Assembly (NCBI RefSeq): GCF_050320075.1
Contig: NZ_CP190018.1
Direction: 5' to 3' (one strand)
DNA from: Escherichia coli
GTDB lineage: Bacteria; Pseudomonadota; Gammaproteobacteria; Enterobacterales; Enterobacteriaceae
Length of the DNA stretch: 64,000 nucleotides
Shown: positions 4,088-63,127 of the stretch, piece by piece
Numbering within the stretch: the first letter of the stretch is position 1
How the letters are laid out: every line of letters begins with the position of its first letter
Translations under genes and position numbers: made by a program
The notes under the pieces: model-generated
The model's database searches: none
Seen by the model: the letters and a program-made list of their open reading frames with translations, nothing else
What the model was told of the DNA's origin: nothing

Positions 4088-4387
4088 ATGGCGCTTACAA
4101 AAGCTGAAATGTCAGAATATCTGTTTGATAAGCTTGGGCTTAGCAAGCGGGATGCCAAAGAACTGGTTGAACTGTTTTTCGAAGAGATCCGTCGCGCTCT
4201 GGAAAACGGCGAACAGGTGAAACTCTCTGGTTTTGGTAACTTCGATCTGCGTGATAAGAATCAACGCCCGGGACGTAACCCGAAAACGGGCGAGGATATT
4301 CCCATTACAGCACGGCGCGTGGTGACCTTCAGACCCGGGCAGAAGTTAAAAAGCCGGGTCGAAAACGCTTCGCCCAAAGACGAGTAA
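4088..4387 (+). CDS. ihfA: integration host factor alpha subunit
   Basis: 99-aa [55 protein letters not shown]... Confidence 0.95.
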
Positions 4388-4400
4388 TCTGATCTAACTA

Positions 4401-4430
4401 AAAAGGCCGCTTTGCGGCCTTTTTTCTTTT
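4401..4430 (+). terminator. ihfA intrinsic terminator (GGCCGC-TTTG-CGGCC + T-run)
   Basis: hairpin and TTTTTTCTTTT 14 bp after ihfA stop. Confidence 0.7.
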
Positions 4431-4487
4431 CACTGTCGAAGAGTCACCGTAAAATCAACGCCATGACACTTCAGCAGAACGGATACC

Positions 4488-7619: not shown

Positions 7620-8333
7620 ATGAAGATTTTTTTGGAGAATCTTTATCATTCTGATTGCTATTTCCTGCCGATAAGAGATAACCAGCAAGACCTTGTCGGC
7701 GTTGAGTTAATTACCCATTTCTCCAGTGAAGATGGTACGGTTCGTATCCCGACGAGTCGGGTTATAGCGCAACTTACCGAGGAGCAACATTGGCAATTAT
7801 TTTCAGAGCAGTTGGAATTACTAAAATCATGCCAACACTTTTTTATTCAACATAAACTCTTTGCTTGGCTTAATTTAACGCCACAAGTGGCTACTTTATT
7901 ATTAGACAGGGATAATTACGCAGGCGAACTATTAAAATATCCGTTTATTGAACTGTTGATTAATGAGAATTACCCGCATCTCGATGAAGGAAAAGATAAT
8001 CGCGATCTTTTTTCCTTATCGCAAATGTATCCCCTTGTGTTAGGTAATTTGGGCGCAGGCAATAGCACAATGAAAGCGGTTTTTGATGGTCTTTTCACCC
8101 GCGTCATGCTGGATAAAAGTTTTATTCAGCAACAAATCACGCATCGCTCCTTCGAACCGTTTATTCGTGCGATCCAGGCGCAAATTTCCCCATGTTGCAA
8201 TTGCATCATCGCGGGGGGCATTGATACGCCAGAAATAATGGCACAGATTACCCCCTTTGATTTCCATGCTCTCCAGGGATGCCTGTGGCCTGCCGTTCCC
8301 ATAAATCAGATAACGACGTTGGTTCAGCGATAA
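7620..8333 (+). CDS. ydiV: anti-FlhDC factor, degenerate EAL-domain protein
   Basis: 237-aa ORF, AT-rich gene, matches YdiV. Confidence 0.88.
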   Translation: MKIFLENLYHSDCYFLPIRDNQQDLVGVELITHFSSEDGTVRIPTSRVIAQLTEEQHWQLFSEQLELLKSCQHFFIQHKLFAWLNLTPQVATLLLDRDNYAGELLKYPFIELLINENYPHLDEGKDNRDLFSLSQMYPLVLGNLGAGNSTMKAVFDGLFTRVMLDKSFIQQQITHRSFEPFIRAIQAQISPCCNCIIAGGIDTPEIMAQITPFDFHALQGCLWPAVPINQITTLVQR

Positions 8334-29025: not shown

Positions 29026-29163
29026 CGTGTAATGGCTGCATGAAATAAACAATAAAATATAAATAACATTATCAGCCTGCTGACGGCTTGAAGAGAGTCA
29101 CAGTATCTTGTGCAACATTATTGGAAAGCGTGAGGGGCGAGGTAGCGAAGCGGAAAAATGTTA

Positions 29164-29268
29164 AAAAAAAGCCCATCGTGGGAGATGGGCAAAGACTACA
29201 CACAGCAATTCGTTGTTTCACTCAGGGGATTTCCATGCTTATAAATCAATATGTTGATTTATAACCGT
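29164..29268 (-). ncRNA. rprA: RprA small RNA (RpoS translational activator)
   Basis: minus-strand sequence ACGGTTATAAATCAACATATTGATTTATAAGCATGGAAATCCCCTGAGTG...CCCATCTCCCACGATGGGCTTTTTTT matches my recollection of rprA, including the terminator. Confidence 0.85.
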
Positions 29269-34706: not shown

Positions 34707-34904
34707 TCCTGACTTGATGCCGCAATTTCGCCAAATCGACCTTGATTAACCTCCGTCCAGGTTCGATGGCCTTCTTAATACTGCTTATCTACCCGCCTGA
34801 TATTGTTCAAAAATAATACTAATCGCAGTTTGTGTTAAAACGGCGGGTTAGCTTTATGAGATTATTCTTATCGCCCCTTCAAGAGCTAAGCCACTGAGAG
34901 TGCC

Positions 34905-34975
34905 GGAGATAAGCGCCGGATGGGGTAGAAACCCTTAAGCCTGTGTCGCACAGACTTAAGGGTTTTCTTATTTCT
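34905..34975 (+). ncRNA. rydB: candidate RydB small RNA
   Basis: ydiH-sufA intergenic position where rydB is annotated in K-12; hairpin ACCCTTAAGCCTGTG/CACAGACTTAAGGGT followed by TTTTCTTATTT; 5' end and identity not verifiable from memory. Confidence 0.35.
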
Positions 34976-37128: not shown

Positions 37129-37875
37129 ATGTTAAGTATTAAAGATTTACACGTCAGCGTGGAAGATAAAGCTATCCTGCGTGGATTAAGCCTCGACGTT
37201 CGTCCCGGCGAAGTTCACGCCATTATGGGGCCAAACGGTTCTGGCAAAAGTACCTTATCGGCAACGCTTGCCGGGCGAGAAGATTATGAGGTGACGGGCG
37301 GCACGGTTGAGTTCAAAGGCAAAGATTTGCTTGCGCTGTCGCCGGAAGATCGTGCAGGTGAAGGCATCTTTATGGCCTTCCAGTATCCGGTGGAAATTCC
37401 CGGCGTCAGTAACCAGTTTTTCCTGCAAACGGCACTTAATGCGGTGCGCAGCTATCGCGGCCAGGAAACGCTCGACCGCTTTGATTTTCAGGATTTGATG
37501 GAAGAGAAAATCGCTCTCCTGAAGATGCCGGAAGATTTATTAACCCGTTCGGTAAACGTTGGTTTTTCCGGCGGCGAGAAAAAGCGCAACGATATTTTTC
37601 AAATGGCGGTGCTGGAACCGGAGTTATGCATTCTTGATGAGTCGGACTCCGGGCTGGATATTGACGCATTAAAAGTGGTTGCCGATGGCGTGAACTCGCT
37701 GCGTGACGGCAAGCGCTCATTCATCATTGTTACGCACTACCAACGCATTCTCGACTACATCAAGCCTGATTACGTCCATGTGCTGTATCAGGGACGAATT
37801 GTGAAATCCGGAGATTTCACGTTGGTCAAACAACTGGAGGAGCAGGGTTATGGCTGGCTTACCGAACAGCAGTAA
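37129..37875 (+). CDS. sufC: Fe-S cluster assembly ATPase
   Basis: 248-aa ABC-type ATPase with Walker A GPNGSGKST. Confidence 0.95.
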   Translation: MLSIKDLHVSVEDKAILRGLSLDVRPGEVHAIMGPNGSGKSTLSATLAGREDYEVTGGTVEFKGKDLLALSPEDRAGEGIFMAFQYPVEIPGVSNQFFLQTALNAVRSYRGQETLDRFDFQDLMEEKIALLKMPEDLLTRSVNVGFSGGEKKRNDIFQMAVLEPELCILDESDSGLDIDALKVVADGVNSLRDGKRSFIIVTHYQRILDYIKPDYVHVLYQGRIVKSGDFTLVKQLEEQGYGWLTEQQ

Positions 37876-41934: not shown

Positions 41935-41967
41935 CAAAAAAATGGCGCACAATGTGCGCCATTTTTC
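41935..41967. terminator. bidirectional intrinsic terminator shared by ldtE and lpp
   Basis: A-run, TGGCGCACA-A-TGTGCGCCA perfect hairpin, T-run. Confidence 0.8.
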
Positions 41968-52635: not shown

Positions 52636-52941
52636 TCAGGCGAGTTTTGCCTGATTGATTTGACTCAGTGGCTCATTGACATCGAAAACTTTGGCGACAA
52701 CTTCCTCAACGCCGAGATTTTTCAGTCGGGCAGTATGTTTTTCCAGATAGGCAAGGGCGCTTTTTTCATCAGTGAAAAGGTAGATCCCACCGGCTTCGTG
52801 GTTCTTTTCACTTTCTGTCCATACCTTCCACAGAAAACCAGGTTCCTGATTAATCGACTCAGCAAGCGGTTCAAGCTGCTCAGCCATTGCGTCGCCAAAT
52901 GGGCCATTAAAAGCAAAATGAAGTTGTAACAAAGTTGCCAT
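52636..52941 (-). CDS. ydhR: putative monooxygenase (dimeric alpha/beta barrel)
   Basis: 101-aa ORF. Confidence 0.85.
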
Positions 52942-53048
52942 AGCGATTCTCCTTCTGATAACGCATACGAAGACAGTGTAAATCTTTTAATGTATTGGAT
53001 ACAGAGAAGAAACAGAGGGAAAAAGGAGAAGACCAGATTAAGAAAATC

Positions 53049-53125
53049 TGGTGCGTCCGAGTGGACTCGAACCACCGACCCCCACCATGTCAAGGTGGTG
53101 CTCTAACCAACTGAGCTACGGACGC
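53049..53125 (-). tRNA. valW: tRNA-Val (anticodon GAC)
   Basis: minus-strand GCGTCCGTAGCTCAGTTGGTTAGAGCACCACCTTGACATGGTGGGGGTCGGTGGTTCGAGTCCACTCGGACGCACCA. Confidence 0.95.
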
Positions 53126-53129
53126 AGGA

Positions 53130-53206
53130 TGGTGCGTTCAATTGGACTCGAACCAACGACCCCCACCATGTCAAGGTGGTGCTCTAACCAACTGAGCTAT
53201 GAACGC
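53130..53206 (-). tRNA. valV: tRNA-Val (anticodon GAC)
   Basis: minus-strand GCGTTCATAGCTCAGTTGGTTAGAGCACCACCTTGACATGGTGGGGGTCGTTGGTTCGAGTCCAATTGAACGCACCA. Confidence 0.95.
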
Positions 53207-59842: not shown

Positions 59843-60775
59843 ATGTGGTCAGAATATTCACTCGAAGTTGTTGATGCGGTAGCGCGTAATGGTAGTTTTA
59901 GCGCTGCGGCACAGGAGTTGCATCGCGTTCCTTCTGCGGTCAGCTATACCGTGCGTCAGCTGGAAGAGTGGCTGGCGGTGCCGCTGTTTGAACGACGTCA
60001 CCGTGATGTGGAACTGACCGCTGCCGGGGCGTGGTTTCTCAAAGAAGGGCGCTCTGTTGTCAAAAAAATGCAGATCACCCGGCAGCAATGTCAGCAGATA
60101 GCGAACGGCTGGCGCGGTCAGTTAGCTATCGCAGTGGATAATATTGTCAGGCCGGAACGTACACGGCAGATGATCGTTGATTTTTATCGCCATTTTGATG
60201 ATGTCGAACTCCTTGTCTTTCAGGAAGTGTTCAACGGTGTCTGGGATGCGCTTTCCGACGGGCGCGTGGAACTGGCGATTGGCGCAACACGCGCGATTCC
60301 GGTAGGCGGTCGTTATGCCTTCCGCGATATGGGGATGCTAAGCTGGAGTTGCGTTGTTGCCAGTCACCACCCGCTGGCGTTGATGGATGGCCCGTTCAGC
60401 GATGATACGTTGCGCAACTGGCCGTCGTTGGTGCGCGAAGACACCTCGCGAACGCTACCTAAACGTATTACCTGGTTGCTGGATAACCAAAAAAGACTTG
60501 TCGTGCCTGACTGGGAATCATCGGCAACCTGTATCTCTGCAGGATTATGCATAGGGATGGTGCCAACACATTTCGCCAAACCGTGGCTTAATGAGGGGAA
60601 GTGGGTGGCACTAGAACTGGAAAACCCCTTCCCGGATTCGGCATGTTGTCTGACATGGCAGCAAAATGATATGTCGCCTGCGTTAACCTGGTTGCTTGAG
60701 TATCTCGGCGATAGTGAGACGCTGAATAAGGAGTGGCTGCGGGAGCCGGAAGAGACTCCCGCAACGGGTGATTAA
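59843..60775 (+). CDS. punR: LysR-family transcriptional regulator (PunR / YdhB)
   Basis: 310-aa ORF with N-terminal HTH, divergent from punC. Confidence 0.85.
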
Positions 60776-61797
60776 CGACGATAGTCGCGGAACGGGCCGT
60801 CAGCCACGGAGCGGCGTTCAATCAACCGCGGATGCACTTCAATGGATTGCGGTTCTTCGCGTTTATTGACGATACGATCCAACAGCATATTGAACGCAGT
60901 TTCGCCCAGCGAATCTTTTGGCTGATGGATCGTGGTCAGCGCCGGCGTAAAATAGCGGGCGTTGCGCACGTTATCATACCCGATCAGCGAAACATCCTGC
61001 GGGACGCGCAGACCCATTTCATCAGCAGCACAAAGTGCGCCCATTGCCATGATATCGCCACCACAGAAGACGGCAGTAGGGCGATGCGGCTGCGACAGGA
61101 TTTGCTGCATGGCGCGATAACCGGATTCAGGTTCAAAGTCACCCTGCACAATCCAGCTTTCCGGCACTTTGATCATCGCTTCTTCCATCGCCTTCATAAA
61201 ACCGGCAAGGCGGCCTGCGCCGGTGTTACGTTCCAGTGGGCCAGGGATAACGCCGATTTCGCGGTGACCGCGTTCAATCAGATAACGCCCGGCCATGTAG
61301 CCGCCTTCGAACGCGTTATCAATGACCGCATCGGTGAAGTCAGCTTTTGCTTCACCCCAGTCCATCACCACCATCGGGATATGGCGATACTCTTCCAGCA
61401 TCGCCAGCAACGGCTCTGGGTACTCAGAACACATCACCAGCAGACCATCGACGCGTTTTTGCGCCATCATCGACAGATAAGCCCGCTGTTTCTCAAGATT
61501 GTTCCACGCATTGCCCAGAATCAGGGTGTAACCTTTCTGGAAGCAATTTTTTTCAACCGCTTCAATGATCTCGGCAAAATAGGCCGCTTCGCTGCTGGTC
61601 GCCAGCAAACCGATAGACTTGGTGTGGTTAACCTTCAGACTACGCGCCACCGCGCTAGGGGAGTAGTGTAATTCTTTGATCGCTGCCCACACGGCGTTGC
61701 GCGTTTCTTCAGCGACGAAACGTGTTTTGTTGATCACGTGTGACACAGTTGTAGTGGAAACGTTTGCTCGTTTCGCTACATCTTTTATTGTTGCCAT
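60772..61797 (-). CDS. purR: purine repressor
   Basis: 341-aa LacI-family [39 protein letters not shown]... Confidence 0.95.
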
Positions 61798-61840
61798 TCC
61801 ATTTCACTCCAGACCCTAACTTCAGCTCCTGCAAAATCGC

Positions 61841-61858
61841 AAGGTAAACGTTTGCCTT
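61841..61858. promoter_or_regulatory. PurR operator (autoregulation) in purR leader
   Basis: AAGGTAAACGTTTGCCTT, good match to the PurR box ACGCAAACGTTTGCGT; a second box-like site GAAACGTTTGCTCG lies in the first codons (61756-61771). Confidence 0.6.
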
Positions 61859-62066
61859 TACACACCTTACGCACAACAAAAGTGTTGCGGTACGCCGGAA
61901 AAACGACACGGAGCGTCAGGAAGGGGTCAATGGCCAGTACGCAAATAGTGTAAGCGTGGAATTTTGGCCGATCTTGACGAAAAGGGGAAGTGGTAAAAAC
62001 ACTTATCATTATAAATGACGGGAGATTTTTTCATCACAGTGTGTAAAAATGCGTAATATCACTTTT

Positions 62067-62075
62067 TGTGTGGTA
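62067..62075. repeat. IS1 target-site duplication, left copy (TGTGTGGTA)
   Basis: identical 9-mer at 62844-62852. Confidence 0.9.
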
Positions 62076-62130
62076 GGTGATGCTGCCAACTTACTGATTT
62101 AGTGTATGATGGTGTTTTTGAGGTGCTCCA

Positions 62131-62406
62131 GTGGCTTCTGTTTCTATCAGCTGTCCCTCCTGTTCAGCTACTGACGGGGTGGTGCGTAACGGCAAAAGCA
62201 CCGCCGGACATCAGCGCTATCTCTGCTCTCACTGCCGTAAAACATGGCAACTGCAGTTCACTTACACCGCTTCTCAACCCGGTACGCACCAGAAAATCAT
62301 TGATATGGCCATGAATGGCGTTGGATGCCGGGCAACTGCCCGCATTATGGGCGTTGGCCTCAACACGATTTTCCGCCATTTAAAAAACTCAGGCCGCAGT
62401 CGGTAA
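62131..62406 (+). CDS. insA: IS1 InsA (transposition repressor / N-terminal part of transposase)
   Basis: 91-aa [46 protein letters not shown]... Confidence 0.95.
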
Positions 62407-62828
62407 CCTCGCGCATACAGCCGGGCAGTGACGTCATCGTCTGCGCGGAAATGGACGAACAGTGGGGATACGTCGGGGCTAAATCGCGCCAGCGCTGGCT
62501 GTTTTACGCGTATGACAGGCTCCGGAAGACGGTTGTTGCGCACGTATTCGGTGAACGCACTATGGCGACGCTGGGGCGTCTTATGAGCCTGCTGTCACCC
62601 TTTGACGTGGTGATATGGATGACGGATGGCTGGCCGCTGTATGAATCCCGCCTGAAGGGAAAGCTGCACGTAATCAGCAAGCGATATACGCAGCGAATTG
62701 AGCGGCATAACCTGAATCTGAGGCAGCACCTGGCACGGCTGGGACGGAAGTCGCTGTCGTTCTCAAAATCGGTGGAGCTGCATGACAAAGTCATCGGGCA
62801 TTATCTGAACATAAAACACTATCAATAA
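62325..62828 (+). CDS. insB: IS1 InsB frame (expressed as InsAB' transposase by -1 frameshift at the A6C motif)
   Basis: 167-aa ORF in -1 frame relative to insA, with AAAAAAC slippery run near 62383. Confidence 0.9.
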
Positions 62829-62843
62829 GTTGGAGTCATTACC

Positions 62844-62852
62844 TGTGTGGTA
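62844..62852. repeat. IS1 target-site duplication, right copy (TGTGTGGTA)
   Basis: identical 9-mer at 62067-62075. Confidence 0.9.
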
Positions 62853-62872
62853 ATAAAAAAGGAGAAAACTTG

Positions 62873-62962
62873 ATGAGCACCGACCTTAAATTTTCACTGG
62901 TAACAACGATTATCGTCCTCGGTTTGATCGTGGCCGTGGGTTTGACTGCCGCGCTGCACTGA
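62873..62962 (+). CDS. ynhF: small membrane protein YnhF (29 aa)
   Basis: ATG with GGAGAAAA SD; product MSTDLKFSLVTTIIVLGLIVAVGLTAALH, single TM helix. Confidence 0.75.
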   Translation: MSTDLKFSLVTTIIVLGLIVAVGLTAALH

Positions 62963-63127
62963 TTTCCTCTCGAGGGAGCGCGTTCTCCCTCGCATCTCCT
63001 TCCTGTTTGTTAGCAAAATGGCAAAAGTGTTTTCTCTTTTTGTTATTTTCATTTTTTTGTGATTGCTGTCATGCTTTCGCCACTTTAATGAATATCGCGT
63101 AATGACGCGAAGAGGTGGAGATAAGGC

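Follow-up and report, generated by a model that had tools for sequence, protein, structure and literature searches.

The locus between purR and cydH (formerly ynhF) in this Escherichia coli genome raises two questions: how an IS1 element came to lie there, and what its position means for the genes on either side. We examined the whole 64-kb stretch of DNA that contains the element, referred to below as the window. IS1 is the archetypal bacterial insertion sequence. The element and the repeats that border it were laid out as follows.

62067 to 62075, no strand: left copy of the 9-bp target-site duplication, TGTGTGGTA
62076 to 62843, plus strand: IS1 element, 768 bp, insA followed by insB', oriented as cydH
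62076 to 62098, plus strand: left terminal inverted repeat (IRL), GGTGATGCTGCCAACTTACTGAT, located with a degenerate IS1-end pattern
62083 to 62110, plus strand: promoter-like CTGCCA-16-TATGAT within IRL, from a consensus scan
62131 to 62406, plus strand: insA, 91 aa, GTG start, with zinc-ribbon and HTH domains (PF03811, PF12759)
62325 to 62828, plus strand: insB' reading frame, open, a 167-aa ORF
62382 to 62388, plus strand: A6C slippery motif, site of the -1 programmed frameshift yielding the InsAB' transposase
62821 to 62843, minus strand: right terminal inverted repeat (IRR), GGTAATGACTCCAACTTATTGAT, located with the same pattern
62844 to 62852, no strand: right copy of the 9-bp target-site duplication, TGTGTGGTA

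The IS1-end pattern found each end only once in the 64-kb window, where the chance expectation was 0.01. On the plus strand the right end reads ...ATCAATAAGTTGGAGTCATTACC, and IRL and IRR match at 18 of 23 positions, as imperfect inverted repeats of about 23 bp that begin with GGT. From established knowledge of IS1, we take the CTGCCA-16-TATGAT site, by its position, to be pIRL, the element's own insA promoter. The slippery TTTAAAAAAC motif occupies 62379-62388, the last seven bases being the A6C part, and a -1 shift there gives a fused InsAB' of 232 aa (62131-62828) without an internal stop. This product scored 243.8 bits against the NCBIfam IS1 transposase equivalog NF033558 (cut-off 100). 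Within it, PF03400 (DDE_Tnp_IS1) was covered from 1 to 131 of 131 positions with E = 7.5e-78, and the three Pfam IS1 domains (PF03400, PF12759 and PF03811) were all full-length with E values of at most 1e-20. The identical DNA in RefSeq record NZ_CP123240.1 carries the PGAP label 'IS1-like element IS1B family transposase, programmed frameshift'.

We compared the element with IS1A, IS1B and IS1R of E. coli K-12 and plasmid R100. The results showed that it is like them in its 768 bp and 23-bp imperfect inverted ends, in the arrangement of insA and insB' with an A6C -1 frameshift and a 232-aa InsAB', and in its 9-bp target duplication in AT-rich DNA; its identity to the best K-12 copy is 99.6%. 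The sole difference from these known elements is the insertion site, at which a single one of 5,426 complete genomes carries IS1. Of these E. coli genomes, 4,950 contained full-length IS1; the median number of matching places in a genome was 11, and other genomes hold copies 100% identical to the purR-cydH copy. By every feature that can be tested from sequence, the element belongs to the IS1 family.

The 9-mer TGTGTGGTA occurs exactly two times in the 64-kb window, each copy abutting one IS1 end, and the duplication is exactly 9 bp long because the bases outside it differ. MG1655 (NC_000913.3) holds a single TGTGTGGTA at 1737566-1737574, as do the nearest relatives of the window in their own sequences, and the MG1655 purR-cydH spacer is 298 bp long and lacks IS1. 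Removal of IS1 and one repeat from the window restored this 298-bp spacer with 0 mismatches, and the reconstructed empty site matched strains 746 and MS14384 at 2,452 of 2,452 positions. The target of the insertion is AT-rich, with 33% GC over 60 bp compared with 50% for the window.

An earlier note on this DNA had described a 768-bp IS1 with canonical termini and intact insA/insB, flanked by identical 9-mers, at a place where MG1655 was expected to have no IS1 and to show the 9-mer once. Direct reading, the reading frames and the profile matches bore out the description of the element, the two copies of TGTGTGGTA proved to be perfect, and the 298-bp MG1655 spacer, with its one 9-mer there and one in the nearest relatives, agreed with the expected empty site. 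The distances held as well: the left end of IS1 lies 278 nt from the purR start codon (ATG at 61797), given earlier as about 275 bp, and the right end lies 29 nt from the cydH start codon (ATG at 62873), given as 29 bp upstream of ynhF. The further claim of a real, fairly recent transposition, not an assembly artefact, is supported by the perfect duplication together with the restored empty site.

To place the insertion among other strains, complete E. coli genomes were searched with a query consisting of flank, IS1 and flank. Coverage of at least 80% was found in one genome of 5,426, that of YZLc1-3 (NZ_CP123240.1), a strain from chicken faeces in Yangzhou; the other records among the matches listed had both flanks 791 bp apart, which corresponds to the empty site. 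With a 300-bp empty-site probe, 5,423 of the 5,426 genomes gave an uninterrupted match, and in 5,421 the identity was 99% or more; two genomes lacked the probe sequence, and the sole split match was again YZLc1-3. These counts support the earlier proposal that the insertion is probably strain-specific. An insertion hotspot was also considered and rejected, as the 300-bp site is interrupted in no other of the 5,426 genomes. As an observation in its own right, conservation of the reconstructed empty site (61926-62075 joined to 62853-63002, 300 bp) is unusually strong for mostly non-coding DNA.

The nearest relatives were ranked using a flank query without IS1. They include strains 746, MS14384 and SCU-109, for which the bit scores imply about 1 difference from the window over the 24 kb of flank, and the annotation of strains 746 and MS14384 shows the empty 298-bp spacer. 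Among contigs encoding the identical PurR (578 read), all ten distinct neighbourhoods shown had the empty site. A 35-mer across the left junction had 0 matches in JGI metagenomes, and a literature search on strain YZLc1-3 found nothing. By these comparisons the insertion is real, simple, recent and private to one lineage, and the copy itself is ordinary. The copy is already known, being annotated in RefSeq record NZ_CP123240.1, and the event is a textbook transposition signature of low novelty.

We compared the window with NZ_CP123240.1 over window positions 779-64000, and three differences were found in total. The largest is a second IS1 in NZ_CP123240.1, on the minus strand inside ydiV and 100% identical to the purR-cydH copy, which is missing from the window. 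It has the target duplication GACAGGGAT, corresponding to window positions 7905-7913, and splits ydiV; in the window ydiV (7620-8333) is intact and encodes 237 aa. YdiV is an EAL-domain anti-FlhD4C2 factor. The other two differences are a T/G SNP at window position 37599, in the sufB-sufC region by annotated coordinates, and an A7 versus A8 homopolymer at about 41936-41942, just upstream of the lpp stop region, which looks like a polishing or assembly difference. Since NZ_CP123240.1 carries the extra ydiV IS1, the window comes from a sibling isolate or from another assembly version relative to that record. In both cases IS1 content is polymorphic within the YZLc1-3 lineage, which fits recent transposition.

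On the left of the element lies purR. We infer that the purR promoter is TTCCCC-17-CAAAAT with a start near 61954, on the basis of the purR operator positions that Rolfes and Zalkin are said to have reported in 1990; IS1 lies about 120 bp upstream of this start site. The features on this side were as follows.

60772 to 61797, minus strand: purR, intact, 341 aa, ATG at 61797
61754 to 61769: PurR/GalR operator O2, from a motif scan with the sequence per PMC5110547 Table 3
61842 to 61857: PurR/GalR operator O1, from the same scan and source
62003 to 62012, minus strand: Fur-box-like ATAATGATAA, from a motif scan

Because the promoter region, O1, O2 and the Fur-box-like site all stay contiguous with purR, and because the element stands that far upstream of the putative start, purR is probably little affected by the insertion.

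The gene on the right, cydH, stands much closer to the element, and the following features are needed for this side.

61798 to 62075, plus strand: left 278 nt of the purR-cydH spacer, cut off from cydH, equivalent to RF02081 model positions of about 1-274
62033 to 62059, plus strand: candidate cydH promoter ATCACA-15-TAATAT, from a motif scan, the only promoter-like site in the empty spacer
62853 to 62965, plus strand: right part of the split RF02081 (STnc550) region, a 20-nt leader remnant plus cydH
62873 to 62962, plus strand: cydH (formerly ynhF), 29 aa, coding sequence intact (NF033411)

The ribosome-binding site of cydH, AGGAG at 62860-62864, is intact, and CydH matched NF033411 over 1-29 of 29 positions with 50.2 bits (cut-off 30); its place between purR and ydhP agrees by synteny. 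CydH, named after ynhF was renamed cydH and also called cydY, is a 29-aa single-helix fourth or accessory subunit of cytochrome bd-I; it is made at low oxygen and blocks an alternative oxygen channel toward heme b595 (PMC6853902, PMC8951039).

The DNA interrupted by IS1 coincides with an Rfam family. The 388-nt model RF02081 (STnc550) equals the purR-cydH spacer plus the cydH coding sequence, and its consensus is strongly conserved right up to the cydH start codon. Intact E. coli sites scored 396 bits against this model, whereas the window scored 261 bits (gathering score 48). The window match (61798-62177) breaks at about model position 274, where IS1 begins, and the 3' third of the alignment is misaligned into IS1; a second, sub-threshold match at 62836-62879 scored 23.6 bits over model positions 260-302. 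The family is contiguous at intact sites and split by IS1 in the window. STnc550 was proposed as an 'enterobacterial sRNA' candidate in a Salmonella Hfq co-IP study, where it spans the entire purR/sodB intergenic region and was represented by 6 and 10 reads, with no Northern blot signal from a probe within the ynhF ORF. We considered STnc550 as a genuine sRNA disrupted by IS1 and rejected this as a strong claim, given the composition of the model, the low read numbers and the negative Northern blot. STnc550 is probably the cydH mRNA region rather than a validated sRNA.

Other Rfam matches in the window were noted in passing. K-12-like elements are intact at 509-633 (pheST leader), 4329-4487 (STnc540, in the ihfA-btuC region), 29161-29268 (RprA) and 34873-34933 (RydB). 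An HPnc0260 'antisense RNA' match of 112 bits at 52925-53087 (plus strand) and 53052-53206 (minus strand) faces two neighbouring tRNA genes, whose sequence probably accounts for it, rather than a real antisense RNA.

We then considered how cydH is controlled. A consensus scan of the empty site gave no strong sigma-70 promoter for cydH, and no cydH transcription start site was found in the accessible literature. The candidate ATCACA-15-TAATAT has a short spacer and agrees with the consensus at only 8 of 12 positions. If this promoter is real, IS1 sits at about +9 to +17 of the cydH transcript, and the promoter would now fire into IS1 in the insA direction. Coordinates in U00096.2 presumably convert to the current MG1655 sequence by a shift of +1976, and with this assumed shift an FNR ChIP peak falls within 15-50 bp of the insertion on its cydH side, at about 62867-62900 in the window. 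Tables S5 and S9 of Myers 2013 attribute the peak to ynhF/purR and give its centre as 1735542/1735575 in U00096.2; the same study lists the target as 'indistinguishable', without an FNR-dependent expression change there. With 8 of 10 positions matching, TTGATGAGCACCGA at 62870-62883 is the best FNR-like motif in the region. It lies over the cydH start codon, to the cydH side of IS1, and the gene may therefore have kept at least part of its control region. This half-palindrome also coincides with the centre of the ChIP-seq peak, an odd position for an activator site. The ArcA ChIP supplements contain no entry for the purR-cydH locus.

The junctions themselves were also scanned for promoters. 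Toward cydH from the right end of IS1, no -10-like hexamer with a -7 T was found at a spacing of 15-19 bp, and a stricter scan gave no outward promoter at either junction. A hybrid promoter leading from the IS1 right end into cydH was rejected on these two results. Inside IS1, no intrinsic terminator was detected on the plus strand, which leaves room for some read-through into cydH, and the gene may still be expressed.

We are nearly certain that the locus records a recent and simple transposition event, in which an intact IS1 entered the purR-cydH region in a single lineage of E. coli, YZLc1-3 or a sibling. A -1 frameshift at A6C would fuse InsA to InsB' and yield the DDE transposase, which would bind the two 23-bp inverted ends and join them to a 9-bp staggered cut in the AT-rich target; repair of the stagger would then leave the TGTGTGGTA duplication. 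These steps are established IS1 biology. An assembly artefact would instead have an IS1 copy misplaced during long-read or hybrid assembly of a genome with more than 20 copies. The material for such an error exists, as the junction query matches 22 places in the chromosome record, one of them purR-cydH, leaving about 20 other copies. The window and the RefSeq record also disagree in the ydiV IS1, one SNP and one homopolymer, and nearby IS1 content therefore varies by assembly or isolate. However, a repeat set down in the wrong place would not bring with it a perfect duplication of 9 bp that all other genomes have in single copy, and the window and the independent RefSeq version share identical junctions, which makes an artefact very improbable. 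We give even less weight, close to none, to an old or ancestral insertion, or to a breakpoint of an IS1-mediated rearrangement or composite transposon. IS1 is known to bring about deletions and inversions and to form composite transposons such as Tn9 (PMC9330008), but rearrangement endpoints lose the duplication, which here is intact. Both flanks are collinear with the relatives, the empty site is restored exactly, and no second IS1 lies in the 64-kb window, while relatives about 1 base different in 24 kb are without the insertion.

Selection offers another account of the same event, in which the insertion was fixed through changed expression of cydH or purR, by a hybrid promoter or by loss of low-oxygen control of cydH. 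An outward -35 box in an IS1 end can combine with a -10 box into a hybrid promoter (PMC8764528, PMC9330008). At the left junction a TTGGCA (from IS1)-17-AAAAGT arrangement faces purR with 8 of 12 matches, a weak possibility, and elsewhere in E. coli the interrupted region hardly varies. Against this account, the insertion is a singleton without parallel insertions in 5,426 genomes, the opposite of a hotspot or convergent signature, and the promoter scans described above found neither an outward promoter at a junction nor a properly spaced -7 T hexamer toward cydH. We therefore regard a selected regulatory mutation as unlikely.

With a simple, recent transposition as the preferred explanation, the effect on cydH can be considered. 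The element, 29 nt from the start codon, cuts off cydH, together with its ribosome-binding site, from some 278 nt of highly conserved upstream DNA, which most likely holds the cydH promoter and leader. In that case cydH would be transcribed only by read-through, either from IS1 or from the displaced upstream promoter, and both routes would be subject to the classical polarity of IS1. For this reason we lean toward cydH expression being reduced or otherwise deregulated, a prediction drawn from the arrangement of the locus. Measurements in other systems show that IS1 just upstream of a gene can leave transcription raised, lowered or unchanged, depending on spacing and on whether the -35 box that points out of an IS1 end is joined by a -10 box (PMC8764528, PMC9330008). 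The closest comparison is with IS1 upstream of afaA, osmB and ugd in E. coli ST131. There too the copies are lineage-specific and stand just upstream of a start codon, from where polarity or a hybrid promoter can change transcription (PMC8764528). Transcript changes have been measured in the ST131 cases, some of which are found in several strains, whereas the purR-cydH insertion lacks a convincing hybrid promoter toward cydH and has a single carrier lineage.

A stronger version, which we put forward tentatively and hold to be possible but somewhat doubtful, is that the strain is a natural cydH regulatory mutant. In such a strain cydH would have escaped low-oxygen control or been shut down by the polarity of IS1, and cytochrome bd-I would contain little or no CydH or would carry it constitutively. 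If this is true, the lineage would provide a ready-made chicken-gut strain for asking what the fourth bd-I subunit does in vivo.

Beyond strain typing the insertion matters little, although it marks the lineage of YZLc1-3-like isolates cleanly. Taken with the polymorphic ydiV copy, it suggests that IS1 is moving at present in the YZLc1-3 lineage. Its one point of biological interest is that it lies 29 nt before cydH, in a region interrupted in no other complete E. coli genome. With this strain one could test, in a natural setting, how cydH is transcribed and whether cytochrome bd-I needs normally regulated CydH.
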